Source: an archaeon | GTDB lineage: Archaea; Iainarchaeota; Iainarchaeia; Iainarchaeales; CSSED10-239 | Direction: 5' to 3' | Assembly (NCBI GenBank): GCA_035390665.1 | Contig: DAOOUC010000014.1 | Location: forward strand, 1 to 14,435 | DNA length: 14,435 nt | In this document: in pieces, positions 488 to 12,309 of the stretch | Numbering within the stretch: position 1 is the stretch's first letter | Layout of the letters: every line of letters starts with the position of its first letter | The notes under the pieces: generated by a model | Databases searched by the model: none | What the model was told of the DNA's origin: nothing | What the model saw: only the letters and a program-made list of their open reading frames with translations | Made by a program: the position numbers and the translations under genes

Positions 488-524
488 ACCATAAATATAT
501 AGTGTTTTATAAGGCCAGTCATTC

Positions 525-582
525 TCGGGGGGGTAGGTGTCCAGTGGAACCCCTTTAGAAAAGGTGTTGCGATCCCAAAACG
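525..582 (-). repeat. Family-A intergenic element, short GC-richer variant (copy A4), oriented toward the minus-strand wHTH gene
   Basis: The reverse complement of 525-549 is ttccactggacacctacccccccga, 24/25 identical to 5093-5117. The reverse complement of 550-582 (cgttttgggatcgcaacaccttttctaaagggg) loosely matches the 5' module ttttgtaaaatcgcaaaatctt of copies A1/A2. Confidence 0.6.
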
Positions 583-586
583 AACT

Positions 587-616
587 CTGCTGGTTGCGCT
601 CGGCTCGCGCGCAATA
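587..616 (+). repeat. Family-C GC-rich module (copy C-e)
   Basis: ctgctggttgcgctcggctcgcgcgcaata aligns with gagccggtttcgctcagctcgcgcgcaata at 3165-3194. ttgcgc (594-599) and gcgcaa (609-614) can pair as a 6-bp stem. Confidence 0.55.
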
Positions 617-710
617 TTTCTTTGTTGTATTTTTGAGAATTAGGTATCTAAAAATTTCAATTTCACAAAAATCTAATTAAAAACCATTCCGTCTTTTCTA
701 GTATTAACCT

Positions 711-1427
711 ATGAAACAAGAAACTCTAGAGATAGCTAACAAACAGTATAATGTAAGAATATACATAGAAAGAAGAAGAAACTCTTCCTGTTCTATTGGT
801 AAAAACATAAACATTAGACTACCCTTATTTCTATCCTCAAAAGATCAACTAGCTGAAATAGAAAGAATGAAACAATGGGCTACCAGTCAGATTCAAAAAA
901 ATCCACCAATTAGTCAAATCTTTAAAAAATACAATTCAGGAGATACAATTACCTTGGGAGAAAAAACATACACTTTAGTAATAAGCACAACAGACAAGAA
1001 AAGCAGTAGTGGGAGATTAAAAGATGATAATATAGTTTTAAAGCTCAGTTCATTAACAGAAAAGAAAAGAGAAGAAGAAACATCCAAGTTAATAAGTAAG
1101 ATAATTTCTAGAGTTAGACTTCCCTATTTACAAAAGAAGATAAGAGAATTAAACTCTAAATACTTCAATCTCCCTTTAGGAGAAATTAAGTTTAAGAATC
1201 AGAAGACTCGGTGGGGCAGTTGTTCACAGAAGAGAAACATAAACATCTCCACTAGATTGATTTTAGCACCAGAAGATGTTCTTGAATACGTTTGCATTCA
1301 CGAACTTGCTCACCTTAAGGAATACAACCATTCAGAAGCCTTTTGGTCCATCATCCGTTCCATTGATCCCAGTTATAAGGATAAGCACAAGTGGTTGAAG
1401 AAGAATGGTAAAGAGCTAGTGATTTAA
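711..1427 (+). CDS. DUF45 / YgjP-like (M48-related, SprT-like) zinc-dependent hydrolase
   Basis: C-terminal signature ...KTRWGSCS...I.I...L...P..VLEYVCIHELAHLKEYNHSEAFW, with HExxH plus a downstream NH, is characteristic of the DUF45/YgjP family. Intact 238-aa ORF with an ATG start. Confidence 0.8.
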   Translation: MKQETLEIANKQYNVRIYIERRRNSSCSIGKNINIRLPLFLSSKDQLAEIERMKQWATSQIQKNPPISQIFKKYNSGDTITLGEKTYTLVISTTDKKSSSGRLKDDNIVLKLSSLTEKKREEETSKLISKIISRVRLPYLQKKIRELNSKYFNLPLGEIKFKNQKTRWGSCSQKRNINISTRLILAPEDVLEYVCIHELAHLKEYNHSEAFWSIIRSIDPSYKDKHKWLKKNGKELVI

Positions 1428-1429
1428 TA

Positions 1430-1475
1430 CTTGGGGGTACAACTTTATTTTAATTGTGTACACTAGTGGGCACAA
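1430..1475 (+). repeat. Family-B intergenic element (copy B1)
   Basis: cttgggggtacaactttattttaattgtgtacactagtgggcacaa recurs at 7743-7788 with 4 mismatches by hand alignment. It contains the imperfect inverted repeat GTACAA..TTGTGTAC and the palindrome GTGTACAC. Confidence 0.65.
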
Positions 1476-1480
1476 AAACT

Positions 1481-1530
1481 ATCGTGATTAGAATCGCCGA
1501 AATGAATCAATTATCGCGATTTAAATCGCA
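1481..1530. promoter_or_regulatory. Two 18-nt direct repeats (atcgYgattWRaatcgc); the second contains a perfect 14-bp palindrome. Candidate operator upstream of the ATPase gene
   Basis: atcgtgattagaatcgcc is at 1481-1498 and atcgcgatttaaatcgca at 1513-1530. GCGATTTAAATCGC (1516-1529) is its own reverse complement. It lies directly 5' of the TATA-like gtatatttaaa at 1531-1541. Confidence 0.4.
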
Positions 1531-1563
1531 GTATATTTAAACCTTTTGTTACCTATATATCTT

Positions 1564-2802
1564 ATGGAAGCAAATATTATCAAAGATATTTTAAATTATA
1601 GCTCTAATAATCTTGAGGACTTTACAGAATCTCAAAGATTTATATTTACTGATATAGAAAGTAAAGTAAATCATTTTTTCAAAAAGCGTGGACTAAATAT
1701 AATACTAATAACTGGACTTAGAGGTACAGGAAAAACCACGATATTAAAAACCATTGCAAAGAAATATGATGGATTGTATACTAGTGGTGATTTTCTAAAA
1801 ACCAAAGTAGTGGATATTCCAAATTTGACTGAAATTTCTAAGGCTTATGATAAAAAGATAATAGTTATTGACGAAGTGCTATATTTAACTGATTGGCAAA
1901 TAAAACTTAAAATAGAAGCAGATACTAATCAAAACATATTATATATAATCTCTGGTTCTTCAGCTATGCAGTTAAAGAAGATATCTCAAGATCTTTCAAG
2001 AAGATTAGATACCTACAGATTAAACCCATTATCTTTTAGAGAATATTTAGTTTTGAAAAATAATTTAAATCTTGAACAAGAAATTAGCTTTTCTAGTTTT
2101 TTAAATAAAGATCAAGAAAAGTTATTTCTAGAGTTGTCTTCAATAAAGCAACAATTACCTAAAAATCTTTATTCTTTGTTTAAATCATATTATGAAGATC
2201 AACTACCTTATCTTTTAGAAGAAAGTAATAAAAAAGACAAGATAAGACAATTAGTAGAAAAAGTAATCTATAAGGACATGCCACAAATTGATAATCTATA
2301 TACTGAACAATTAAAAAATGCAGAAATAATTATTAAGTTTTTAAGTTCTGCAGAAAAGATAAACTATACTAGTATTTCAACCAACTTAGGAGTAAAAAGA
2401 GACATGGTTGTTAAGATTATTGATCTTTTAGAGAAATCAGATTTATTATATATAGTTCAAGACGTAGTTCCAACAAGAGAACTTAGAAGTAATAAGAAGA
2501 TTTTATTTTCCTCTCCAGGAATAAGAATTGCTTTAAACGAGGTAAATGAAAGCTCAATTATTGGTTTTTCAAGAGAAGACATGTTTGGGTTGATACTAAA
2601 GAACTCAGGCATTAAATTTGCATACAACTACAAGCAAGACGGTTATGATTATCTAGTAAAGACTGTTAAATTTGAGATAGGCAAGAACAAGACCAAGAAC
2701 AGTATAAGCAAAGGCACCATAGTCGTAGGCGATTACTTAGACGTAGAATACAAAAATCACACCCTTTACATTCCAATGTACTTATTCTCCCTAATCAACT
2801 GA
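1564..2802 (+). CDS. AAA+ ATPase of the DUF4143-type (archaeal-ATPase-like) family
   Basis: Walker A is GLRGTGKTT and Walker B is KKIIVIDEV. Size (~410 aa) and the C-terminal helical/wHTH-like tail fit this family. The ORF track starts at TTG 1546. ATG 1564 (MEANIIKD...) is preferred because a TATA-like box is centred ~28 nt upstream. Confidence 0.8.
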   Translation: MEANIIKDILNYSSNNLEDFTESQRFIFTDIESKVNHFFKKRGLNIILITGLRGTGKTTILKTIAKKYDGLYTSGDFLKTKVVDIPNLTEISKAYDKKIIVIDEVLYLTDWQIKLKIEADTNQNILYIISGSSAMQLKKISQDLSRRLDTYRLNPLSFREYLVLKNNLNLEQEISFSSFLNKDQEKLFLELSSIKQQLPKNLYSLFKSYYEDQLPYLLEESNKKDKIRQLVEKVIYKDMPQIDNLYTEQLKNAEIIIKFLSSAEKINYTSISTNLGVKRDMVVKIIDLLEKSDLLYIVQDVVPTRELRSNKKILFSSPGIRIALNEVNESSIIGFSREDMFGLILKNSGIKFAYNYKQDGYDYLVKTVKFEIGKNKTKNSISKGTIVVGDYLDVEYKNHTLYIPMYLFSLIN

Positions 2803-2886
2803 GCTGAGCCGGTTTCGGTCACGCCCAGAAAATTCATTTTCTGGCGTCCCAGAAGCTAAGCTTCTATGAGCTCGCGCCCAATGGCG
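2801..2886 (+). repeat. Composite GC-rich element: a family-C module split by two small hairpins
   Basis: The left part is gagctgagccggtttcggtcacgc (2801-2824). Hairpin 1 is ccagaaaat-tc-attttctgg (2825-2844) and hairpin 2 is agaagct-a-agcttct (2851-2865). The right part is gagctcgcgcccaatgg (2868-2884). Left and right parts together match the modules at 3081-3114 and 3164-3206. Confidence 0.55.
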
Positions 2887-3293
2887 AAAGAATAAGAGAA
2901 GAAGAAACATCCAAGTTAATAAGTAAGATAATAGCAAGAGAAAGACTTTCCTATTTACAAAAGAAGATAAGAGAATTAAACACCCAATACTTCAATCTCC
3001 CTTTAGGAGAAATTAAGTTTAAGAATCAGAAGACTCGGGTGTGGGCAGTTGTTCACAGAAGAGAAACATAAACCTCTCCAGGAGCTGGTTTCGGTCAGCT
3101 CGCCCCCAGTGGTTGCACCAGAATCTGTTCTTGAATACGTTTGCATTCACGAGTTAGCCCACCAGAGCCGGTTTCGCTCAGCTCGCGCGCAATAGTCTCT
3201 CTAGACTTCTGGTCCATCATCCGTTCCATCGACCCCAGTTACAAAGACAAGCACAAGTGGTTGAAGAAGAACGGTAAAGACCTCGTCATTTAA
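2886..3293 (+). pseudogene. Decayed second copy of the 3' half of the DUF45/YgjP-like gene
   Basis: It is collinear with 1060-1427 in three blocks (about 2886-3080, 3115-3163, 3207-3293) and ends at the equivalent TAA (3291-3293). It is 5'-truncated. A 2-nt insertion near 3037-3043 leads to a premature TAA at 3069-3071. Two internal segments are replaced by GC-rich modules, one of which removes the LKEYNHSEA part of the metal site. Confidence 0.85.
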
Positions 3294-3312
3294 GAAATTT
3301 CTATAGTTCACT

Positions 3313-3588
3313 TTGTGGGGCAAGAGAACCAGAGAAGAAATAAGAATTTTCTATGGTAAAAGGAATGTTTTTAAAGAGTTTTTAGTTATAAGTTTATTAA
3401 TCGGTGAAACTATGAAAGTATATATCTTAAGTGATACAGAAAACTTATTCTCAAAAGAAAAGAAAGAATTATTAGAAAGTAAATTAGAAGTAGTTTACAT
3501 AAGAGAAATAAAACCCTCAAATTTTGTGAAATTGACGATTTTTGAGAAAAAGTTGAGTTTTTACAAAAAAACCACAGAACCTATTTAA
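3313..3588 (+). CDS. Hypothetical small protein; possibly spurious or a gene remnant
   Basis: The ORF-track entry begins at TTG. The only ATG in frame is at 3412 (MKVYILSDTENLF..., 58 aa). No recognisable motif was found, and it lies inside a decayed region. Confidence 0.25.
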   Translation: MWGKRTREEIRIFYGKRNVFKEFLVISLLIGETMKVYILSDTENLFSKEKKELLESKLEVVYIREIKPSNFVKLTIFEKKLSFYKKTTEPI

Positions 3589-3654
3589 TCTTTCTCTAGT
3601 TCTTTTGTTTTATCTACAGAAAAGAAAATTAACCACAGAATCTAACTTAATCTT
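3570..3654 (+). repeat. Direct repeat aaccacagaaYcta..ttaatctt (2 copies) followed by atctt-type low complexity
   Basis: aaccacagaacctatttaatctt at 3570-3592 overlaps the stop of the 3313-3588 ORF. aaccacagaatctaacttaatctt is at 3631-3654. Downstream runs of taatctt/tatctt extend to about 3690. Confidence 0.4.
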
Positions 3655-3989
3655 AATCTAACTTTATCTTCATCTTTATCTTTAAACTATTAGATATGAT
3701 TTATTTACATTTATAAAAATACCAATTTTCTTAACTTATATGCGGCTTCTTTTGCTTTTTAATTAAATAACTAAATACTAATGCTTACTATTTAATTTCT
3801 ATACAAAACCTTAAAAGAAAGAAAAAACTAAATAAATAAAAAGAATGTTTCTACCTCTCTATTAGTGTTCTTTAGTTATCTTTTCCAAAAAAACTACTAA
3901 CAATATAAAATTTAAAACCTAATTCTTTCTAATAAGAACTAAAACTTAAATAAAAGGCTTAAAACACATAACAAATACCTATTTACTTG

Positions 3990-4079
3990 AAGATTTTGTA
4001 AAATCGCAAAATCTTGGACATTTTTAGATAGTTTCACAAATAATTTCGCAGTGGACAACTACCCCCCCGAAAACACCCC
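3990..4079 (+). repeat. Family-A intergenic element, full-length copy A1
   Basis: It has a perfect inverted repeat aagattttg-N8-caaaatctt (3990-4015) and an AT-rich middle (tttttagatagttt). The core is tcgcagtggacaactacccccccga (4046-4070), followed by aaaacacccc. It aligns end to end with 5040-5126. Confidence 0.7.
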
Positions 4080-4141
4080 TTGTTTAAGACACAGATATAT
4101 AATATAAATGTTAACTTTAATAATATTTAGAGAGGGAACTA

Positions 4142-5029
4142 ATGAAAAATAAAGAGAAAGTAATAATTCTAAATTATTGTGCATATAGTGCAATTGGCCG
4201 GATTTGTTTAAGATTTCCTAAAGAAATCAAAGGATTATTGAAGATTGTAAAGTATTCTAAAGATAAACAAGAGATTATTGCTAAAGTAAATATCTTAAAT
4301 AAGCAGTTAGTTCCATTAATTTTAGTTTTATTGAATAATCTAAAAGAAATCAATTGTTCTAAGTTAAATTATTTATTTCTGGAAAACGATTATTTAGAAA
4401 AATATTTTGAAAAAATAATGTTAAATAAAAAACTCAATAAAAAAGACAAATTAATTAATGAGTATATTTCTCAATTATTTAAAATCCCTAAAGCCACTAA
4501 CATTAACCAACTACGGTTAAAAAAATTAACGACTTTTATTAATAACTGTAATTTATTAGATAAACCAAAATGGAGGAAATTAAAATTTATATTTTTAAAA
4601 TCCATAAAAGGAGTATCTTGCGGTTATGGTAATTTTAATTATGTAATTATTGAATCTAACATCTTTCCAGAACAGCTAATTATACATGAAGTAATACATA
4701 ATTATAATCAAAAACAAAAATTTAGAACCAAAAATACAATGGAATTTGAAGAAATATTTACCAATGTTATTTCTCAAGCAATTTATTGTAAATATAAGAG
4801 AAAGCCAGTTGTTTTTGATAAGTACTATTATTCTACAAAAAAAGAACAGCAATTGGAAGAGGAATTACGGATGTGTTATTTTGAATGGATTAAACAATCA
4901 AATCCTAATTTTCTAGATTATTTAGAAGAAAGTGGAAAGATATTCATTGGTAAAGATAGAATCACTTGGACCTTTAATGATAATTTAAAGTTTAAGAAAC
5001 TAGTTAAAGAATCTATAAAGGTAAAATAA
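4142..5029 (+). CDS. Hypothetical protein with a single HExxH motif (possible metallopeptidase)
   Basis: Intact 295-aa ORF with an ATG start preceded by the purine-rich agagaggga. The motif is LIIHEVIHNY. No other family signature was recognised. Confidence 0.55.
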   Translation: MKNKEKVIILNYCAYSAIGRICLRFPKEIKGLLKIVKYSKDKQEIIAKVNILNKQLVPLILVLLNNLKEINCSKLNYLFLENDYLEKYFEKIMLNKKLNKKDKLINEYISQLFKIPKATNINQLRLKKLTTFINNCNLLDKPKWRKLKFIFLKSIKGVSCGYGNFNYVIIESNIFPEQLIIHEVIHNYNQKQKFRTKNTMEFEEIFTNVISQAIYCKYKRKPVVFDKYYYSTKKEQQLEEELRMCYFEWIKQSNPNFLDYLEESGKIFIGKDRITWTFNDNLKFKKLVKESIKVK

Positions 5030-5039
5030 ACTAATTCTA

Positions 5040-5126
5040 TTTTTGTAAAATCGCAAAATCTTAAACATTTTTTTATAGTTTAACAAATGGTTTTCCACTG
5101 GACAGCTACCCCCCCGAAAACAACCC
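5040..5126 (+). repeat. Family-A intergenic element, full-length copy A2
   Basis: ttttgtaaaatcgcaaaatctt...ttttttatagtttaacaaatgg...ttccactggacagctacccccccga (core 5093-5117), followed by aaacaaccc. It is a direct repeat of A1, about 1.05 kb downstream. Confidence 0.7.
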
Positions 5127-5147
5127 GGCTTCTACTACTATATATTA

Positions 5148-6113
5148 TTGGTGGAAGGTCTGAACGAAAATAATAGTTTAATTGTTCCAGATAATATAAA
5201 TCACAAGATTCATGCAATTAGAGGAGTTCAGGTAATGCTTGATAGCGATCTTGCAGAACTGTATGGAGTTAGCACAGGTAGACTGAATGAAGCAGTTAAA
5301 AGAAATATAGATAGATTTCCCGAGGATTTCATGTTTCAATTAACGCAAAAAGAATGCGAAATCTTAAAGTCGCAATTTGCGATATCAAGTTTGGGTAATG
5401 TTAATAATTTCCCTGTAAATACTAGTAATAACGCTAATCGTTCGATATCGCAATTTGCGATATCAAAGAATGACAGAGGTGGAAGACAAAAATTACCATT
5501 CGTTTTTACTGAACAAGGCGTTGCTATGCTTTCTGGAGTTCTTAAGAGCGAAAGAGCAATAAAAGTTAATATCTTTATTATGAGAGCATTTGTAGCTATG
5601 AGACAATTTATACAAGAAAATGCAGGGCTATTTCAAAGAGTTGATAGTCTTGAAATAAAACAAATTAAAACAGATAAAAATATTAAAATGATCTTTAGTG
5701 CTATGGCAGATAAAAATATTTTCAAAAAACAAAAAATTCTTTTTGATAATCAAATATTTGATGCTTACAAGTTTGTTAATGATATACTAAAAAAGGCAAA
5801 GAAATCAATAATTCTTATTGATAATTACATAGATGAATCAGTGCTAATACTTTTTTCAGAAATAAAGAATGTAAAGATTATTATATATACTGAAAATATA
5901 ACAGATAAATTAAAACTTGACCTTGAGAAATATAATCAACAATATTCAAATATAGAAATAAGAAAATTCAAGAAATGTCACGATAGATTCTTGATAATTG
6001 ACAATAAAGAAATCTATCATTTTGGAGCATCAATCAAAGACCTTGGAAAGAAGTGGTTTGCTTTCTCTAAGATGGATAAAGAGTCATTAAAATTATTACA
6101 AAAATTGGAATAA
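5148..6113 (+). CDS. ORF6N (KilA-N-like) DNA-binding domain fused to a PLD-like (HxK/R..D) C-terminal domain
   Basis: The N-terminal IRGVQVMLDSDLAELYGV...RLNEAVKRNIDRFPEDFMFQLT...FTEQGVAMLSGVLKSERAI is the ORF6N signature. The C-terminal CHDRFLIIDNKEIYHFGASIKDLGKKWFAFSKM resembles a phospholipase-D/nuclease HKD-type motif with R in place of K. The start is uncertain: TTG 5148, GTG 5151, and no upstream ATG. Confidence 0.75.
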   Translation: MVEGLNENNSLIVPDNINHKIHAIRGVQVMLDSDLAELYGVSTGRLNEAVKRNIDRFPEDFMFQLTQKECEILKSQFAISSLGNVNNFPVNTSNNANRSISQFAISKNDRGGRQKLPFVFTEQGVAMLSGVLKSERAIKVNIFIMRAFVAMRQFIQENAGLFQRVDSLEIKQIKTDKNIKMIFSAMADKNIFKKQKILFDNQIFDAYKFVNDILKKAKKSIILIDNYIDESVLILFSEIKNVKIIIYTENITDKLKLDLEKYNQQYSNIEIRKFKKCHDRFLIIDNKEIYHFGASIKDLGKKWFAFSKMDKESLKLLQKLE

Positions 6114-6124
6114 ATTTAGATTAT

Positions 6125-7702
6125 CTATTTTTTAATTTCCTTCCCTCTTAAGAGCTTGTTGTAGGTGATGGCAAACCTATGGGCTTCATCTCTAATTCTT
6201 TGAAGTAATTGAAGAGATTGTTCTTTTTTGCTTAGTTTTATAGAAAACAGTTGCTCTGGTTTAAAAATTTCTTCTTCTCTTTTTGCAAGACCAATAATTT
6301 CGGTCTTTTCAAAAACATTAAGTTCTTTAAGAACAGAAACTGCAGAAGAAAGTTGACCTTTTCCACCATCAATAACAATTAAATCCGGTAGTTCTTTATT
6401 TTCTTTAATCAAACGATAGTATCTTCTTCTTACAACTTCTGAAATGCTTGAAAAGTCATCAATCTTTCCGTTATCCAAGGTTTTTATTTTAAATTTCCTG
6501 TAATTACTTTTGCTTGGCAAACCATCTTTAAAACAAACCATTGAGCCGACTGTCAGGGTTCCAGAAAGATGAGAAATATCAAAACATTCTATGGTTCTTG
6601 GAAGTTTTTTAAGTTTTAATTTCTTTTGTAAGTCTATAAGTGTTAATTCTTCTTTAAAGAAAGTAATTTCAATATTCTTAAAACAAAGATCAAGAAGTTC
6701 TTTCTTCTCTCCTTTTTGTGGTATTGTAATAATTATTTTTTCTTTCTTTTGATCTTCAAGATATTTTTCTGTTTCTTCTAAAACAGAAGAAGGTATAATT
6801 ATTTCTTTAGGAATAAAATTACTAGAATAATATTTGATTAAAAAATCATCAAGAACAGAAATATCTACTAAAGAGTTATCAATAATAAATTCTTTTTTAT
6901 TAACAAGTGTTCCTTTATCAATGTTGAACAAAAGTAAATATATCTTGTTATCTTTAGCAATGTAATTAATAATATCTTGATCAAATTTAACTTGTCTTTC
7001 CATTGTTTGTTTTTGTGTTAAGTAATCAATGGCAGTTATCTGATTTCTTAGTGTTAGTGCTTTCTCAAAATCTTGATTTCTAGAATAAAGTTCCATATCT
7101 TTTTTTAATTCAGGTAAAAGTTCTTGAGATTTACCAAGTAAAATCAGCTTAACTGTTTCAATTGTTTTAGAATAGTCTTCTTTAGTAATGTTACCAATAC
7201 AAGGAGCAGAGCAATAACCAATATGAAATCTAGTACAAGGAGTTTTTGGTAGTCTTTTACAAGTTCTTAATTTAAATTCTTTATTTAGGTATCTAATTAT
7301 TTCTGTTCTTGCTTTGCCAGAAACAAAAGGACCAAACACATTGTCGTCTTTACCGCTTGGCTTTTCTCTTAGTGTTAATAATCTAGGGTAGTTTTCTTTA
7401 GTTACTTGAATATAAGCATATCTTTGCCCATTTTTAAGATCAATGTTATACTTTGGTTGATGTTTTTTAATTAATGTGTTTTCAAGAATAAAAGCTTCAA
7501 GTTCATTGTTAGTAACAATGAAATCCACAGAAAAGATATTTGAAACAAGAGCACTAGTTTTTGCGCCTTGTTCTTTATTTAAAAAATAAGAAGAAATTCT
7601 TTTCTTAAGATTTTTTGCTTTACCAATATATATAATATTCCCACTTTTATCTTTGTAGATGTAACAACCAGGACAATTAGGGATATTTTCTAGATTAATC
7701 AT
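6125..7702 (-). CDS. uvrC: Excinuclease ABC subunit C (UvrC), short form
   Basis: It has the GIY-YIG motif (GCYIYKDKSGNIIYIGKAKNLKKRISSYF) and the Cys cluster CTRFHIGYCSAPCIG. It also has a UVR-like region and the C-terminal endonuclease signature IVIDGGKGQL...RIRDEAHRFAITYNKLLR. Confidence 0.9.
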   Translation of the reverse strand: MINLENIPNCPGCYIYKDKSGNIIYIGKAKNLKKRISSYFLNKEQGAKTSALVSNIFSVDFIVTNNELEAFILENTLIKKHQPKYNIDLKNGQRYAYIQVTKENYPRLLTLREKPSGKDDNVFGPFVSGKARTEIIRYLNKEFKLRTCKRLPKTPCTRFHIGYCSAPCIGNITKEDYSKTIETVKLILLGKSQELLPELKKDMELYSRNQDFEKALTLRNQITAIDYLTQKQTMERQVKFDQDIINYIAKDNKIYLLLFNIDKGTLVNKKEFIIDNSLVDISVLDDFLIKYYSSNFIPKEIIIPSSVLEETEKYLEDQKKEKIIITIPQKGEKKELLDLCFKNIEITFFKEELTLIDLQKKLKLKKLPRTIECFDISHLSGTLTVGSMVCFKDGLPSKSNYRKFKIKTLDNGKIDDFSSISEVVRRRYYRLIKENKELPDLIVIDGGKGQLSSAVSVLKELNVFEKTEIIGLAKREEEIFKPEQLFSIKLSKKEQSLQLLQRIRDEAHRFAITYNKLLRGKEIKK

Positions 7703-7742
7703 AAATATAATTAATATCTAAAAGATATTAAAAACTGCTTCT

Positions 7743-7813
7743 TTTGGGGGTACAACCTTATTTTAATTGTATACACTAGTGGGTACAATTTATAAACATT
7801 TGTATACACTATA
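7743..7813 (+). repeat. Family-B element (copy B2), organised as two tandem 33-nt units
   Basis: 7743-7788 matches 1430-1475. The units at 7748-7780 and 7781-7813 both read GGGTACAA-N11-TTGTATACACTA-N2 at identical offsets. Confidence 0.65.
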
Positions 7814-7818
7814 TATTT

Positions 7819-8772
7819 ATGGCTATAATAAAAAGAATTATCGGAAATAAGGAATATTATTATTTAGAAGAACAGTTTAGAATAATAGATAAATTAAGAA
7901 AATTCAGAAAATATTTAGGCTCTAAAAAACCATCTAAACAAGAACAAATAGATATTGAAAACCAATTTCTAGACACTATAATTGCAAGATTAACATCTTC
8001 TTCAAATATTCAAGTAAAGTATATCTCTAAAAAGCAATTAATTCAGATATTATTATTTAATCAAAAATATTTTAATAAATACAATAAATTAACTCCAACT
8101 ATTAAAAATAAGCTAAATATAGACAATATTGTATTATTTACATTAACTACTTTAACAACAGAAGACATAGACGTATCTTTAGAAGATGTAATTAATGCTC
8201 AAAAGAAAGATAAAAACTTAAATCAGAGAGAACTAATTTGTAAAAACATGTTAAAAGGCATAGATCTAATCAAAAAAGGAAAAACTAAAATAGACATTAA
8301 TTTTATTAAAAACTTACATAAAACAATAATGGCTGATTTTGAAACAAAGACACCTGGACTATTTAGAACAAGAGAAGTTCATATCTATAAAAAGCACACA
8401 AAAGACATTTTAAGTGCAGAAATAAAGTTTCAGCCACCAGCTTACGGGTTAGTTGTGGATAAACTTAACAAATTAATAGAGTGGTATAATTCTTCAGATT
8501 TAAATAACTTTGAAAAAGCAATACTTTTACATTTTGAAATATATAAGATTCATCCATTCCTTGATGGAAACAAGAGAGTATGTAGATTATTGTTCAATAA
8601 AGTATTACTTGACAATAACTTTCCATTAGTAAACATTTCAGACAACAGAACTAAATACTTTGATTCATTACTTTCTTCAGTAGAAGAAAACAACCCTGCA
8701 CACATGGCTGACTTTATGGTGAATGCTTACTTAAAACAAGTAAAGACATTTATAGGTAAAGACGAAAGTTAG
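7819..8772 (+). CDS. Fic-domain protein (putative AMPylase/adenylyltransferase)
   Basis: Fic motif HPFLDGNKRVCRLL (consensus HPFx[D/E]GN[G/K]R). An upstream segment TTLTTEDIDVSLEDV aligns with the class-II inhibitory-helix region (S/T)xxxE(G/N), here TxxxED. Confidence 0.85.
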   Translation: MAIIKRIIGNKEYYYLEEQFRIIDKLRKFRKYLGSKKPSKQEQIDIENQFLDTIIARLTSSSNIQVKYISKKQLIQILLFNQKYFNKYNKLTPTIKNKLNIDNIVLFTLTTLTTEDIDVSLEDVINAQKKDKNLNQRELICKNMLKGIDLIKKGKTKIDINFIKNLHKTIMADFETKTPGLFRTREVHIYKKHTKDILSAEIKFQPPAYGLVVDKLNKLIEWYNSSDLNNFEKAILLHFEIYKIHPFLDGNKRVCRLLFNKVLLDNNFPLVNISDNRTKYFDSLLSSVEENNPAHMADFMVNAYLKQVKTFIGKDES

Positions 8773-8862
8773 AAGCAAATTAGTTATCCAGATTAATCAT
8801 ATAAAAGATAGATATAAAAAACATTTTAAAAAGAATGTATTAAAGATATAAAAGTGAAGAAT

Positions 8863-9576
8863 ATGCCTCCAAAAATAAACAAACCATTTAAAGTAAGAGA
8901 AATTGGAAAAAAAGCAGTAGTAGGAACAAGAAAAGGAAATAAGATACTTAACAAGAAAGAACTAATTGATGCTCTTTTAGAAGTATCAAGAAAACAAATG
9001 TTAATGGATTATAATGATCCACAAGGAAGATTTAGAATAATTAAGCAAATGAGTTTCAAATCAGATGGACAGCATATACAAAGAAACTATGTTTTAGAAA
9101 TTAATGGAGCGACAGGTGTAAAGAAATACTTCATTAAAGAAGAAAAACTATCTACTATTGGAAAAGAGAACTTGACTTCAAGTTATACTTGGGAAGATGC
9201 AATAACTGAAAGTAAAGCACTTAATGTAATTTCAGATTATTTAAAAGAACATAAAGAAAGTAAAATAATTACAGTTCCATTTAAGTTTTCATATTTAGAT
9301 AGAGAAAAAGGAGTAAGTTATATTTGCTATAATTTCCAAGAAGGGCATCATCCAAAAACTCTACTTCAAAGAAAACAAATTGGAATAAAGGAATATTTAG
9401 ACATAAATAGAAGATTAGGGGTATTTGAAAAAAGACTAAATGAATATCTTGCAAAGAATTTAAAAAAATATAATTTAGAAGAAGGCACAATATTAACAGA
9501 CATTTCTACAGAAAATGTATTTTATGATCCAAAGACAAAGAAAATAAGAATCTTCAATCCAGTTCTTTCAAAATAA
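8863..9576 (+). CDS. Hypothetical protein; weak resemblance to a minimal protein-kinase-like fold
   Basis: The ORF track starts at GTG 8854; ATG 8863 (MPPKINK...) is preferred. LTDISTENVFYD resembles a DxxxxN catalytic loop and KKYFIKEE a beta3-Lys region, but the DFG-equivalent is IFNP. This is not a secure assignment. Confidence 0.5.
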   Translation: MPPKINKPFKVREIGKKAVVGTRKGNKILNKKELIDALLEVSRKQMLMDYNDPQGRFRIIKQMSFKSDGQHIQRNYVLEINGATGVKKYFIKEEKLSTIGKENLTSSYTWEDAITESKALNVISDYLKEHKESKIITVPFKFSYLDREKGVSYICYNFQEGHHPKTLLQRKQIGIKEYLDINRRLGVFEKRLNEYLAKNLKKYNLEEGTILTDISTENVFYDPKTKKIRIFNPVLSK

Positions 9577-9583
9577 TTTATTT

Positions 9584-9603
9584 TTCCACTGGACAGCAAC
9601 CCT
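9584..9603 (+). repeat. Family-A element, truncated copy A3 (core only)
   Basis: In ttccactggacagcaaccc the first 14 nt are identical to the A2 core, and the C7 run is reduced to ccc. It lies 36 nt upstream of ATG 9640. Confidence 0.5.
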
Positions 9604-9639
9604 AGTTAAACTTATAAACTAGAAAAATTATAGTTATTT

Positions 9640-10398
9640 ATGATTAAATTAATTAGTGATAGAAATATCTTAGATAAATTTGTTATAGATTTTACAACTA
9701 TTTTAGAAAAATACTCAAAATATGCAATAGTTTCTGGTTTCTTAGCAATTTCTAGTGGAAGAGTAAGAGGAACAGAAGATATTGATCTAATTGTTGAAGA
9801 AATGACTAAAGATACTTTTGAAAAATTCTTTAAAGATATCTATAAGCACAAATTTGAATGTGTACAAGGAGATGACCCAGAATTAATTTGGAATTTATAT
9901 TTAAAATCAAAAGACACAATAAGATTTGTGCGAAAGGGCACAGAAATGCCAGACATGGAATTTAAATTTCCAAAAACAGAAGCAGATAGAGTAGCATTAC
10001 TTACTAGAAAGAAATTACCATTAACTGGCCTTTCGGTTTACTTTGGAAGTATAGAAAGTACAATTGCATTTAAAGAACATCTTTTAAAGTCTCCAAAAGA
10101 TATAGATGATGCAAAGCATTTAAGATTAATCTATTCTAAAGAAATAAATGAAAAAGAAATTATTCGAATTAAAAAACTTATAACAAGAGACATTTTAGGT
10201 AAATCAGGTAAACTTAAATCCCCAGAATTAAGTTACTATTACAGAAGAGATAAAACACATGATGAATTTATAGAAAGATGGGCAGAAAACATAAAGAAAA
10301 CTCCACGAAAAATCTGGAAAAAAGAATTAAATCAATTTATTGATGCTCAATTCCAAAAATCAAAAGAATTCTATAAACGATTGAATAAGAAAAAATAA
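9640..10398 (+). CDS. Nucleotidyltransferase-fold (minimal NTase / MNT-like) protein
   Basis: ISSGRVRGTEDIDLIVEE fits the G[GS]-x(9-13)-DhD NTase pattern. Intact 252-aa ORF with an ATG start and a TATA-like cttataaac centred 25 nt upstream. Confidence 0.5.
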   Translation: MIKLISDRNILDKFVIDFTTILEKYSKYAIVSGFLAISSGRVRGTEDIDLIVEEMTKDTFEKFFKDIYKHKFECVQGDDPELIWNLYLKSKDTIRFVRKGTEMPDMEFKFPKTEADRVALLTRKKLPLTGLSVYFGSIESTIAFKEHLLKSPKDIDDAKHLRLIYSKEINEKEIIRIKKLITRDILGKSGKLKSPELSYYYRRDKTHDEFIERWAENIKKTPRKIWKKELNQFIDAQFQKSKEFYKRLNKKK

Positions 10399-10401
10399 TA
10401 T

Positions 10402-11331
10402 TTATTTTAAATAATTCTCTATTTTTTCTTTAAATTCTTTATCGCTTTCTGTTAATTTAATTATTTCTTTGTTTTCATTTAAGTATTTGGGGTCAATATA
10501 TCTTTTTTTTACATATCTAGGTGTATTAATTATTATTTCATTATTTCTTAATTGTTTTAATGTTTTAACTATAAACTCATCACTTGAAGAATAAATTTTA
10601 TTTTCAATAACTTCTTCTGTTTCTAAAAAATCAGATAAGGAAATTACATTAATGTCAAGAGCTCTTTTTAATAAATCTATAAAGATGAATTTCTTTTCTA
10701 CCTTTATTGGGTTGTTAAAATCATTAATTATTACATACATATAAGCATTAGCAAAAGACTTTGCAGACTCTTTATTTTTAAATATTAACTTATTATCAAT
10801 AACTGTAAGATTAACGAAGATATTTTTTATAAAATCAGGTTCTTTAGTTCTATAATAATATTCTCTTATAGAATAATCTAATCTATCAGCACAAGTATCA
10901 GGGGCCGGCAATTCAAGAAGAGTATATTTTTCTAAATCTTCTAATATATTTAAATTAATATTATATTTTTTAAAAATGTCATTAATCTCTTTATTGTTTT
11001 TTAAAAAACTAAAGAAATTATTATCTTGATGATCTTCATTTAAATCTCCTTTTAATATATCATAAGTATGTGAAAACGCGGCGTGATTAATATCATGTAA
11101 TAATCCTGCAATTTTTTCTTCTAATTTTGCTCCAACTAGATCTAAGATTATTAGAACACCAAGCGAATGCTCTAATCTAGTAAAATAAAGATCAGAAAGA
11201 TCTTTAGGAAATCCTTTATTTCCAATCTTTCCAAGTCTTTGAAAAGTTTTTGAATTAATTAAATCAACCAATATTGGTTCTTTAATTATATGTTTACCAT
11301 AAACTGGATCATTAATTTCTATTAAATTCAT
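10402..11331 (-). CDS. HD-domain phosphohydrolase, COG1078 / SAMHD1-like family
   Basis: Signatures: DPVYG near the N-terminus, FTRLEHSLGV, LLHDINHAAFSH and CADRLDYSIRE. The ORF track starts at 11358. ATG 11331 (MNLIEINDPVYG...) is preferred because it sits 1 nt after the Nudix stop (TAA-t-ATG), indicating translational coupling. Confidence 0.8.
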   Translation of the reverse strand: MNLIEINDPVYGKHIIKEPILVDLINSKTFQRLGKIGNKGFPKDLSDLYFTRLEHSLGVLIILDLVGAKLEEKIAGLLHDINHAAFSHTYDILKGDLNEDHQDNNFFSFLKNNKEINDIFKKYNINLNILEDLEKYTLLELPAPDTCADRLDYSIREYYYRTKEPDFIKNIFVNLTVIDNKLIFKNKESAKSFANAYMYVIINDFNNPIKVEKKFIFIDLLKRALDINVISLSDFLETEEVIENKIYSSSDEFIVKTLKQLRNNEIIINTPRYVKKRYIDPKYLNENKEIIKLTESDKEFKEKIENYLK

Positions 11332-11332
11332 A

Positions 11333-12229
11333 TTAAAACAGCTCTTTAAATTCTTCAAATATTTTCCTTGCTGATTCTATTTGGTTTTGTAAAGTAAGGC
11401 ACTTTTCAGTTTCTTCTTTCTTTATCCATTTATATCCTGAAATTTCTTCTTCTTGTATTTTTATGTTTTCTGGAGAAGAAAGTAATTTAGCAATAACAAT
11501 CTTTCCTTTTCCCCCACGAGATTTAAAGTAATTATTGAAAAGACTTTCTTTTGAAATTTCGTATTCTAAAGGATATTTAGATATTCCGATAATTTCTATA
11601 TCAGCATTAACTTCTTCTTTTGCTTCTCTTATTGCTGCTTTTTCAAAAGTTTCATCTTTTTCTAATCCGCCACCAAGCACCTTGCAGAAATGATCTTTAA
11701 GTGCAGAAAAGACAACAATAAATTCTTTATTTTCATTAAGAATATATACTTCAACATAAGAACCATAAGGAAGATATTGTATATCAATATTTTCTTTAGT
11801 AATATTTAGATTATTAATTTCTGTTTCTAATTTTTTCTTTAAACTTTCTTTATTATCGTCCCACCATAGTTTTTCTATATACTCATCAATATCGCACCAA
11901 AGAAAATCAATGTGTTCTATTCCATCAAGAATTACTTTATCGGAGTTAATAATTGATAAGAAATTATGTTCTTCACATTGTTCTTTATCGTAATTAGAAT
12001 AATATTCACTTTTGGTATTTAGATTAATAATCTTGATTGGGGCAATGTCTATTTCTTCAAGCATTTTTCTTGCGACTGCATCTTCCAAAGATTTATCTTC
12101 TTTTTCCACAGAACCAGTAACTGTAAACCATTTTTCTCCACCGTGGATTGGATCCTCGCCATTATTCTTTAAAAGAAGAAACCTGTTATTTTTCCTAGAA
12201 TAAATAAAAGAAAGAATCTTTATTCTCAT
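11333..12229 (-). CDS. Tandem Nudix hydrolase (degenerate N-terminal plus canonical C-terminal Nudix domain)
   Basis: The canonical Nudix box is GGLEKDETFEKAAIREAKEEVNA (Gx5Ex7REUxEE). The N-terminal half has a degenerate box, ...GSVEKEDKSLEDAVARKMLEEIDI. The ORF track starts at TTG 12250. ATG 12229 (MRIKILS...) is preferred because of a TATA-like box 26 nt upstream. Confidence 0.8.
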   Translation of the reverse strand: MRIKILSFIYSRKNNRFLLLKNNGEDPIHGGEKWFTVTGSVEKEDKSLEDAVARKMLEEIDIAPIKIINLNTKSEYYSNYDKEQCEEHNFLSIINSDKVILDGIEHIDFLWCDIDEYIEKLWWDDNKESLKKKLETEINNLNITKENIDIQYLPYGSYVEVYILNENKEFIVVFSALKDHFCKVLGGGLEKDETFEKAAIREAKEEVNADIEIIGISKYPLEYEISKESLFNNYFKSRGGKGKIVIAKLLSSPENIKIQEEEISGYKWIKKEETEKCLTLQNQIESARKIFEEFKELF

Positions 12230-12309
12230 AAATATCTTAACAAACCGCAATATTTTTAAACTAGTTTATAATCTATTCTTATATAATTTTAGTGGAGGGT
12301 TGAATAATT
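12230..12309. promoter_or_regulatory. Divergent promoter region between the Nudix-HD operon and the RuBisCO operon
   Basis: cttatataat (12278-12287) is centred ~27 nt upstream of ATG 12310. tttaaaaata (reverse complement of 12251-12260) is centred ~26 nt upstream of ATG 12229 on the minus strand. ggaggg at 12294-12299 is a possible SD for rbcL. Confidence 0.4.

Follow-up and report, generated by a model that had tools for sequence, protein, structure and literature searches.

Several families of short palindromic or structured repeats are known. Rickettsia palindromic elements (RPEs) occur in intergenic DNA and also in frame in unrelated genes whose reading frames are kept open, at sites that the protein fold can accommodate (PMC10969869). 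The GC clusters of yeast mitochondria are mobile GC-rich palindromes in an AT-rich genome, and changes in their flanks have been read as co-conversion tracts (PMC4478555). Repetitive extragenic palindromes and bacterial interspersed mosaic elements (REP/BIME) are imperfect palindromes of 20–40 nt that have a conserved tag, are multicopy and mostly extragenic, and form mosaic arrays (PMC3733652). [quoted passage not shown] In this study a family of GC-rich hairpin repeats, here called modules, was analyzed in a 14,435-nt stretch of archaeal DNA with a GC content of 28% (contig DAOOUC010000014.1, Iainarchaeales; the whole stretch is referred to as the window). The window carries four modules (m1 to m4, Table 1), of which m3 and m4 lie inside a degraded second copy of a gene for a DUF45 metallopeptidase. 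This second copy is probably a decaying DUF45 paralogue that was invaded by a lineage-specific, selfish, GC-rich hairpin repeat of AT-rich archaea, and RPEs, REP/BIME and the yeast mitochondrial GC clusters are the closest analogues of the repeat. Related loci are denoted below by L numbers and their proteins by P numbers.

The segment 2886–3293 is a 5'-truncated pseudogene homologous to the intact DUF45 gene at 711–1427, and not a functional member of PF01863, because its blocks are out of frame and the segment encoding LKEYNHS is gone. The first-pass annotation of this DNA, made from the sequence alone, had described the segment as a duplicate of the 3' ~370 nt of the intact gene and as inactivated; BLAST and block alignments reproduced all of its measurements, and the broken frames and the missing 5' half and metal-site segment agree with the loss of function. 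Identity is 92% between 1059–1211 and 2886–3038, 97% between 1214–1251 and 3043–3080 (for the whole of block 1 by BLAST, 93.3% over 194 nt), and 88% both between 1266–1314 and 3115–3163 and between 1337–1427 and 3203–3293. Relative to the intact gene, the pseudogene has gained 2 nt near 3039–3042, has 35 nt in place of 15 nt at 3081–3114, and has 43 nt in place of 26 nt at 3164–3206. Of the gene, only the 3' half is represented in it; the frame differs between blocks, and stops occur. The HELAH sequence (HExxH motif) is kept in block 2, and the metal-site segment LKEYNHS downstream of it was lost to m4.

This mosaic is not an assembly chimera, because an independent sample assembles it identically. 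Contig L002, from another sample (JGI 3300010429), aligns without gaps to window positions 638–9348 with six single-nucleotide polymorphisms, all of them outside 2800–3300. The assembly of L003 (JGI 3300025706) does stop inside m3, at window position 3084, and the repeat thus troubles assemblers; this break is the usual stop of an assembler at a repeat. A homologous module was also found at the same site of the gene in L033, which comes from yet another study, and there is practically no chance that the mosaic is a chimera.

The modules constitute a conserved repeat family that is dispersed in a group of AT-rich archaea. The core pattern GGTTTCGNTCAGCTCGC, allowing at most three mismatches, occurs three times in the window versus 0.01 times expected, and three occurrences were reached in none of 200 shuffles. 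Exact-pattern scans of metagenomes and genomes with GAGCYGGTTTCGNTCAGCTCGC identified 25 metagenome loci and two genome loci. Six high-GC matches consisted of the 22-nt core alone and were taken as chance, and about 20 low-GC contigs (22–36% GC) carry the full consensus GAGCYGGTTTCGSTCAGCTCGCRCSCAATRG(T). Both the pattern excess in the window and the consensus shared by these contigs bear out the earlier proposal that the GC-rich inserts form one repeat family; the further members that had been proposed at the 5' truncation point, with two extra hairpins, and near 587–616 were confirmed as m2 and m1, respectively. Both genome matches are metagenome-assembled genomes labeled 'uncultured archaeon', the module-bearing contig L018 contains an archaeal small-subunit rRNA, and the DUF45 protein of the window carries the NCBI label '[archaeon]'. 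With four copies in 14 kb the window can be compared with related contigs, which have about one module per 5–10 kb. Among 216 homologues from the DUF45 and nucleotidyltransferase families, modules are confined to one narrow lineage. A viral origin of the modules is unlikely, because scans of IMG/VR detected neither the module nor motif A, a second repeat family of the window described below. No published description of the module family was found in the literature, including that on DPANN and Woesearchaeota.

Modules occur in a short and a long form. The short form, of about 32 nt, consists of a 5–6-bp stem (GAGCYG/CRGCTC) and an 8-nt loop (GTTTCGST), which together make a 20-nt hairpin, followed by the tail GCRCSCAATRG. 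Folding of the modules, which the first-pass annotation had put forward as a check for a conserved hairpin, gave a 6-bp hairpin for m3, and the stem is kept among copies by compensatory variants (GAGCTG/CAGCTC, GAGCCT/AGGCTC, GACCGG/TCGGTC and GAGCC/GGCTC). The long form, of about 80 nt, has two further hairpins added at the 3' side of the loop and was found in the window (2806–2884), in L033, in L023 (two copies) and in L008. RNAalifold analysis of these five copies identified 28 pairs, half of which (14) still pair after changes on both sides. Window m2 folds into a four-way junction with a z-score of about -2.9, with either RNA or DNA parameters, and in the DNA fold the GAGCT at 2801–2805 pairs with AGCTC at 2869–2873, closing a cloverleaf-like structure.

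Modules are also found within modules (L029 compared with L020, and L030), with entry at the same point of the loop, and mosaic or tandem arrays with accessory hairpins occur in L005, L008 and L023. The two L023 arrays (1869–2166 and 337–622) are made of units of about 50 nt, GAGCCCGTTGCGGTGAGCTCGCGCCCAGCCAGATNTTGTATKGTTCTACT, with five repeats; a further array lies at 1817–1981 of L005, and accessory hairpins such as GGATTTCGCGGTTATCCGCAATAG are mixed into the arrays of both loci. [quoted passage not shown]

Comparison of filled and empty sites revealed how the modules are placed in their targets. In a nucleotidyltransferase gene, zero, one, two or three modules are present in close strains, and the open reading frame (ORF) is intact throughout (Table 1; proteins P0121 and P0123). 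Between L039 and L020, 11 nt are replaced by 32 nt; between L020 and L029, CAG is replaced by 33 nt; and the second site in L040 shows clustered substitutions in its flank. In the DUF45 gene, about 9–15 nt of L037 are replaced by about 80 nt in L033, so that L033 is filled and L037 and L022 are empty. Within the window, m3 has taken the place of about 15 nt and m4 that of 11–26 nt. Every event with an empty-site comparator involved the loss of approximately 3–15 nt of target and no target-site duplication. The first-pass observation that gene sequence in the window is replaced rather than merely interrupted was thus extended to four or five independent events elsewhere. Several copies have TAG, AAG or AG flanks that hinted at a target-site duplication, which was rejected because no AG of the empty L039 site (gataaatcatttcttttc) is found in duplicate in L020. 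Outside genes, m1 is not present in the orthologous intergenic region of L032, and an inverted short module abuts the equivalent of the segment 3329–3381 in L022 and L033 and is lacking from the window.

Three unrelated gene families, encoding DUF45, nucleotidyltransferase and NUDIX proteins, have intact members that contain in-frame modules in sense orientation. In L033, the gene of the 264-aa DUF45 protein P0007 contains a long form, encoding RAGFGHAQKTHFLASQKQGFYELAPKS, precisely at the truncation site of the window pseudogene. An intact DUF45 gene that encodes the GC-rich stretch in frame had been regarded beforehand as evidence against insertion, and for the long module such a gene exists in L033; it extends the finding and does not refute it, because this is a recent insertion, missing from the 97%-identical L037 and L022. 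In the NUDIX fusion gene of L006, an in-frame module directly follows the Nudix box. L006 also contains, on the minus strand, a duplicated 3' fragment of the NUDIX gene about 1.2 kb away, beside motif A (1–115 and 1312–2538); this fragment begins exactly at a module, the same architecture as that of the window pseudogene. The net length changes of the four measured genic events were +69, +21, +30 and +24 nt, all multiples of three (L006, which has no empty-site comparator, was left out of this measurement), and no genic copy contains a stop. In AlphaFold models, P0007 and P0123 each had a mean predicted local distance difference test score (pLDDT) of 88, with values below 50 only in the module peptides (residues 119–138 of P0007 and 160–170 of P0123), which lie between helices or strands.

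These properties allow the modules to be compared with the described systems. As with RPEs, modules lie in frame in unrelated ORFs that are kept open, and their peptides fall in loops modeled with low confidence; RPEs are set apart by size and host, being about 100–150 bp long and alphaproteobacterial, whereas modules are 32 or about 80 nt long and archaeal. Furthermore, unlike RPEs, modules are GC-rich in an AT-rich genome, are nested, abut tRNA genes, and overwrite 3–15 nt. Modules share with the GC clusters (e.g. GC42) a GC-rich hairpin of about 30–50 nt, constrained stems, presence/absence polymorphism, and merging or nesting, and the flank changes at modules in L033, L040 and window m3 and m4 are comparable to the co-conversion tracts of GC clusters. 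GC42 has an AG target-site duplication, whereas modules have none and target bases are lost; in addition, modules reside in archaeal chromosomes and GC clusters in organelles, and the two have no sequence similarity. REP/BIME resemble the modules in being multicopy palindromes found in mosaic arrays with accessory motifs (L005, L008 and L023). The GTAG/CGTC tag of REP/BIME is absent from both strands of the module consensus, which has the head GAGC and the tail GCRCSCAATRG, and REP/BIME were counted as strictly extragenic, whereas modules are also found inside DUF45, nucleotidyltransferase and NUDIX genes and have archaeal hosts. No REP-associated tyrosine transposase (RAYT, PF01797) was found among the called genes of the loci obtained by protein look-up, the loci from DNA scans carrying no Pfam calls. 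Like MITEs, modules are small, non-autonomous, multicopy and structured; unlike MITEs, the short form lacks a target-site duplication and, apart from its own hairpin, terminal inverted repeats, its 32 nt are below the usual MITE size, and no parent insertion sequence was identified. The earlier suggestion that short GC-rich modules overwriting gene segments are undescribed as mobile-element behavior therefore stands in part: overwriting without duplication and the archaeal host appear to be undescribed, whereas in-frame colonization of genes is known from RPEs (PMC10969869) and mobile GC-rich palindromes are known as well (PMC4478555).

Diversity-generating retroelements (template repeat/variable repeat pairs) were rejected as a source of the mosaic, as the substitutions are not A-specific and no reverse transcriptase domain was found in the ten window ORFs scanned (711–12250).

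Modules also lie in intergenic DNA, at times overlapping a stop codon (L010 and the ATPase gene of the window), and module heads directly abut motif A in the window, L005, L006, L011, L023 and L030. Seven modules start 1–2 nt from the mature ends of tRNAs, with the head always toward the tRNA. Three of these are on the 3' side of the tRNA, in L008 (Val, Leu and Gly, at 3067–3100, 3250–3282 and 6136–6228), and the others are on the 5' side and on the opposite strand (L013, 300–331; L018, 499–532; L019, 1722–1800 and 7425–7456). Such placement raises the alternative that modules are functional cis-acting or small RNA elements under selection, such as 3'-end or processing hairpins, tRNA leaders or trailers, or cloverleaf-like small RNAs, and have come to lie in the pseudogene and in coding regions only incidentally. 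In agreement with this alternative, GC-rich islands in contigs of about 25–30% GC are otherwise mostly tRNA or rRNA genes and motif A (a minority of short islands are unclassified), the hairpin changes are compensatory and, on the sense strand, include some G-U pairs, the majority of copies point the same way as the neighboring genes, and the long form adopts the four-way junction described above. However, copies that are in frame in three unrelated proteins, nested or in tandem behave as selfish DNA, the copies 5' of tRNAs and the copy in L022/L033 are antisense to local transcription, A-C mismatches are about as common as G-U pairs in the alignment, and a T-run follows only some copies. In a scan against Rfam 15, the window had no match at E≤1, and in seven related loci only tRNA and rRNA genes were matched, none over modules; ARAGORN detected no tRNA in the window. 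Taken together, a functional RNA explanation is unlikely. Two more specific RNA identities were rejected: no tRNA model matches the module, as would be expected of a split tRNA or tRNA fragment, and a hammerhead or other ribozyme, an idea prompted by CUGA..GAAAC on the minus strand, has neither an Rfam match nor a stem II.

The modules might also be recombination sites of a cassette or integration system (attC- or att-like), with the mosaic as a by-product. The four window modules share a direct orientation, the DUF45-ATPase gene pair lies between m1 and m2, gene fragments of both the window and L006 have their start precisely at a module, nested copies and the hairpins of the long form enter at one point at the 3' side of the loop, and gene order is shuffled among relatives. 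Against these observations, there is no recombinase near any copy among the called genes, the DUF45-ATPase pair does not move as a unit in relatives, copies in ORFs and beside tRNAs delimit no cassettes, and the truncations are accounted for just as well by ordinary homologous recombination among the dispersed repeats, which makes such a system very unlikely.

Since modules interrupt coding sequence, form hairpins and adjoin tRNA genes, archaeal introns of the bulge-helix-bulge type or translational-bypass elements were considered as well; GC-rich bypass elements are known in an AT-rich yeast mitochondrion. A scan for helix-bulge-helix-bulge-helix structures (3-nt bulges, 4-bp helix) at six module sites gave no consistent motif. 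Lengths in multiples of three and stop-free copies would be needless if modules were excised or skipped, and, owing to the lost target bases, removal of m3 or m4 would leave the gene broken. Introns or bypass elements are thus extremely improbable.

The history of the second DUF45 copy was examined by synteny and by polarizing substitutions with L032, L022/L033 and L034 as outgroups. In L022 and L033, the gene order is ATPase, two or three genes, and DUF45; as the 94% identity of the downstream segment 3329–3381 shows, the pseudogene sits at the position syntenic with this DUF45 gene and, for this reason, looks like the resident copy and not an import. The intact copy is instead syntenic with L032, in which DUF45 follows motif A. 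Of 13 changes on the intact branch, three are nonsynonymous, against about ten of 16 on the pseudogene branch, which indicates relaxed constraint on the latter. In block 1, seven differences are nonsynonymous and one is synonymous.

The first-pass annotation had noted that differences in block 3 are mostly synonymous, which is correct (nine of 11 differing codons), and had concluded that the second copy diverged under purifying selection in a GC-richer background before it was inactivated, suggesting a xenologue. Besides the nine synonymous versus two nonsynonymous codons, this origin would fit the GC content at third codon positions (GC3) of block 3, which is highest in the pseudogene (0.79, versus 0.57 in the intact copy, L032, L022 and L033), the four pseudogene-specific changes to C, and the roughly equal distances among intact copy, pseudogene and L032, by which one copy could stem from a sister strain. 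However, the outgroups assign six of the ten differences in block 3 to the intact copy, four of them being C to T changes; the synonymous excess therefore comes mainly from the functional copy, and a GC-richer donor is not required. The pseudogene branch in blocks 1 and 2 is dominated by nonsynonymous changes, C-rich third positions are common to relatives on contigs of 26–29% GC, and, if either copy is a newcomer, the intact one is an equally good candidate. These points, together with the syntenic position, did not sustain the proposed divergence in a GC-richer background or the xenologous origin, which is quite unlikely. The small component of change toward C in block 3 of the pseudogene is left over as a minor unexplained point.

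For the preferred explanation, invasion of a decaying paralogue by a selfish hairpin repeat, the following course of events is proposed. The elements may be mobilized in trans, or copied in via break repair or gene conversion, which would explain both the lost target bases and the clustered substitutions at junctions. In functional genes, only in-frame, stop-free insertions in surface loops would survive. The ancestor of the pseudogene would have carried a long element in frame, as L033 does now, and deletion or recombination between this in-gene module and a copy abutting the ATPase stop codon would have eliminated the gene's 5' half along with the DNA between the two modules; such an event is the simplest reading of the 5' truncation. 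At the ATPase end, the GC content climbs to 44–50% directly past the stop codon in the window, and the L022 orthologue ends at the same codon, but as TAA and with no module after it. Redundancy with the intact gene at 711–1427 would have let m3 and m4 be tolerated despite the destroyed frame and metal site.

A more far-reaching possibility, and a rather doubtful one, is that the modules represent a new, non-classical type of archaeal selfish element that enters breaks as a copy made by templated repair, by gene conversion or in an RNA-templated step. Templated copying would couple the strand of the element to transcription, would explain the overwriting of 3–15 bp without duplication, and would also explain the landing of modules flush at tRNA ends, in their own loops and in frame. 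In that case, the long form might be an RNA or DNA with a cloverleaf-like structure that interacts with enzymes of tRNA processing or of repair.

Several points weigh against the explanation by a selfish repeat. No mobilizing enzyme was identified, and neither a transposition intermediate nor a target rule can be derived; we infer mobility only from presence or absence between relatives that are 93–97% identical. In AT-rich DNA the junctions can be placed only to within a few bases, and the overwritten lengths are accordingly approximate. The abutment on tRNA ends and the conserved cloverleaf-like long form could hint at a cellular RNA function. Colonization of coding regions may be uncommon, because peptide searches gave the long form in frame in P0007 only: a composite 112-aa query had no hits, and a phmmer search with the 30-aa long-form peptide had no match among 1.84 billion representatives. 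The four block-3 changes toward C on the pseudogene branch are unexpected for decay in an AT-rich genome. Finally, the long element occurs at the same DUF45 site in two lineages that are about 76–85% identical, whereas closer relatives lack it; this shared site would require either strong site preference or lateral recombination.

Table 1. Features of the window and of the nucleotidyltransferase loci compared in this study
Feature	Location	Strand	Description
Motif A, core TCGGGGGGGTAGGTGTCCAGTG	497..556	-	Upstream of leftward gene, next to m1; inverted repeat with 4049–4073 and 5086–5145
Module m1, diverged short form (GCTGGTTGCGCTCGGCTCGCGCGCAATA)	589..616	+	Intergenic, upstream of intact DUF45 gene
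DUF45 gene (YgjP-like, M48/SprT-like metallopeptidase), intact	711..1427	+	238 aa; Pfam PF01863, E=1.5e-41
AAA_14/DUF4143 ATPase gene	1546..2802	+	Pfam; stop codon TGA (2800–2802) overlaps 5-nt module-head remnant
GAGCT remnant of module head, fused to m2	2801..2805	+	Sequence; fused likewise in the nested L029 and L030 copies
Module m2, long form: GAGCC-GGTTTCGGTCA, hairpin 1 (2822–2846), hairpin 2 (2848–2869), GCTCGCGCCCAATGG	2806..2884	+	At 5' truncation point of pseudogene
Pseudogene block 1 (gene 1059–1251)	2886..3080	+	2-nt insertion near 3039–3042 shifts frame
Module m3, short form (GAGCTGGTTTCGGTCAGCTCGCCCCCAGTGGTT)	3082..3114	+	nhmmer E=1.8e-9; 6-bp hairpin; stands for ~15 nt of gene (1251–1265)
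Pseudogene block 2 (gene 1266–1314)	3115..3163	+	Encodes APESVLEYVCIHELAH including HExxH; frame unlike blocks 1 and 3
Module m4, short form (GAGCCGGTTTCGCTCAGCTCGCGCGCAATAGT)	3165..3196	+	nhmmer E=1.1e-11; stands in for LKEYNHS segment with metal-site residues
Junction scar (CTCTCTAGAC)	3197..3206	+	Poor alignment to gene 1330–1340; beside no other module
Pseudogene block 3 (gene 1341–1427, stop codon included)	3207..3293	+	Alignment
Downstream segment	3329..3381	+	94% identical to DNA just downstream of DUF45 gene in L022/L033
Nucleotidyltransferase gene	L039 488–1237		Empty site
Nucleotidyltransferase gene	L020 211–978		One module, RAGFGQLAPNS for KSFL
Nucleotidyltransferase gene	L029 1–684		Second module nested in first
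Nucleotidyltransferase gene	L040 753–1574 (P0123)		Third module, other site

The intact DUF45 protein of the window is encoded identically by four or five independent contigs from at least four samples. Just past the stop codon of its gene, at 1431–1475, lies one copy of a 45-nt direct repeat, TTGGGGGTACAACTTTATTTTAATTGTGTACACTAGTGGGCACAA; the other copy, 93% identical, is located at 7744–7788, upstream of a Fic gene, and among the fetched loci this repeat was found only in contigs of the window's organism. Mechanically called ORFs of 50 aa (3141–3293) and 47 aa (537–680) cross modules or pseudogene blocks and could pass for small genes in gene calling. Between 4142 and 12250, genes of the same set (YgjP, AAA_14-DUF4143 ATPase, Fic/DOC, ORF6N, HD, NUDIX and UvrC) are found as in L022, L032 and L034, in a different order, which suggests a recombination-prone region that is possibly rich in defence or toxin-antitoxin genes.

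Full copies of motif A, the core of which can also be given as TTTTCCACTGGACAGCTACCCCCCCGAAAACACCCC, are located at 497–556 (minus strand), 3994–4079 (plus) and 5041–5126 (plus), at most about 70 nt upstream of a start codon and pointing toward the gene, and a partial copy lies at 9582–9602 (plus). The motif was also found in L005, L006, L011, L023, L029, L030 and L032. An archaeal origin-recognition box (TCCAGTGGA dyad followed by a G/C run) was considered for motif A and rejected, since motif A resembles it only in part and is scattered over the upstream regions of many genes; because of this dispersal, it is more likely a promoter-proximal or mobile motif.

In conclusion, 2801–3293 of the window should be annotated as a pseudogene with repeats and contains no gene. 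Modules break short-read assemblies, as in L003, and inflate gene calls with foreign peptides. Selfish DNA inside coding genes is best known from Rickettsia and from organelles, and the modules would be a comparable family in AT-rich uncultured archaea, which may have small genomes. That insertion costs target bases and leaves no duplication points to an unusual route of integration, and the precision with which modules sit at tRNA ends may connect them with RNA processing. Through their insertion, the elements generate variation in protein loops as well as gene truncations and rearrangements, as seen in the window and in L006.

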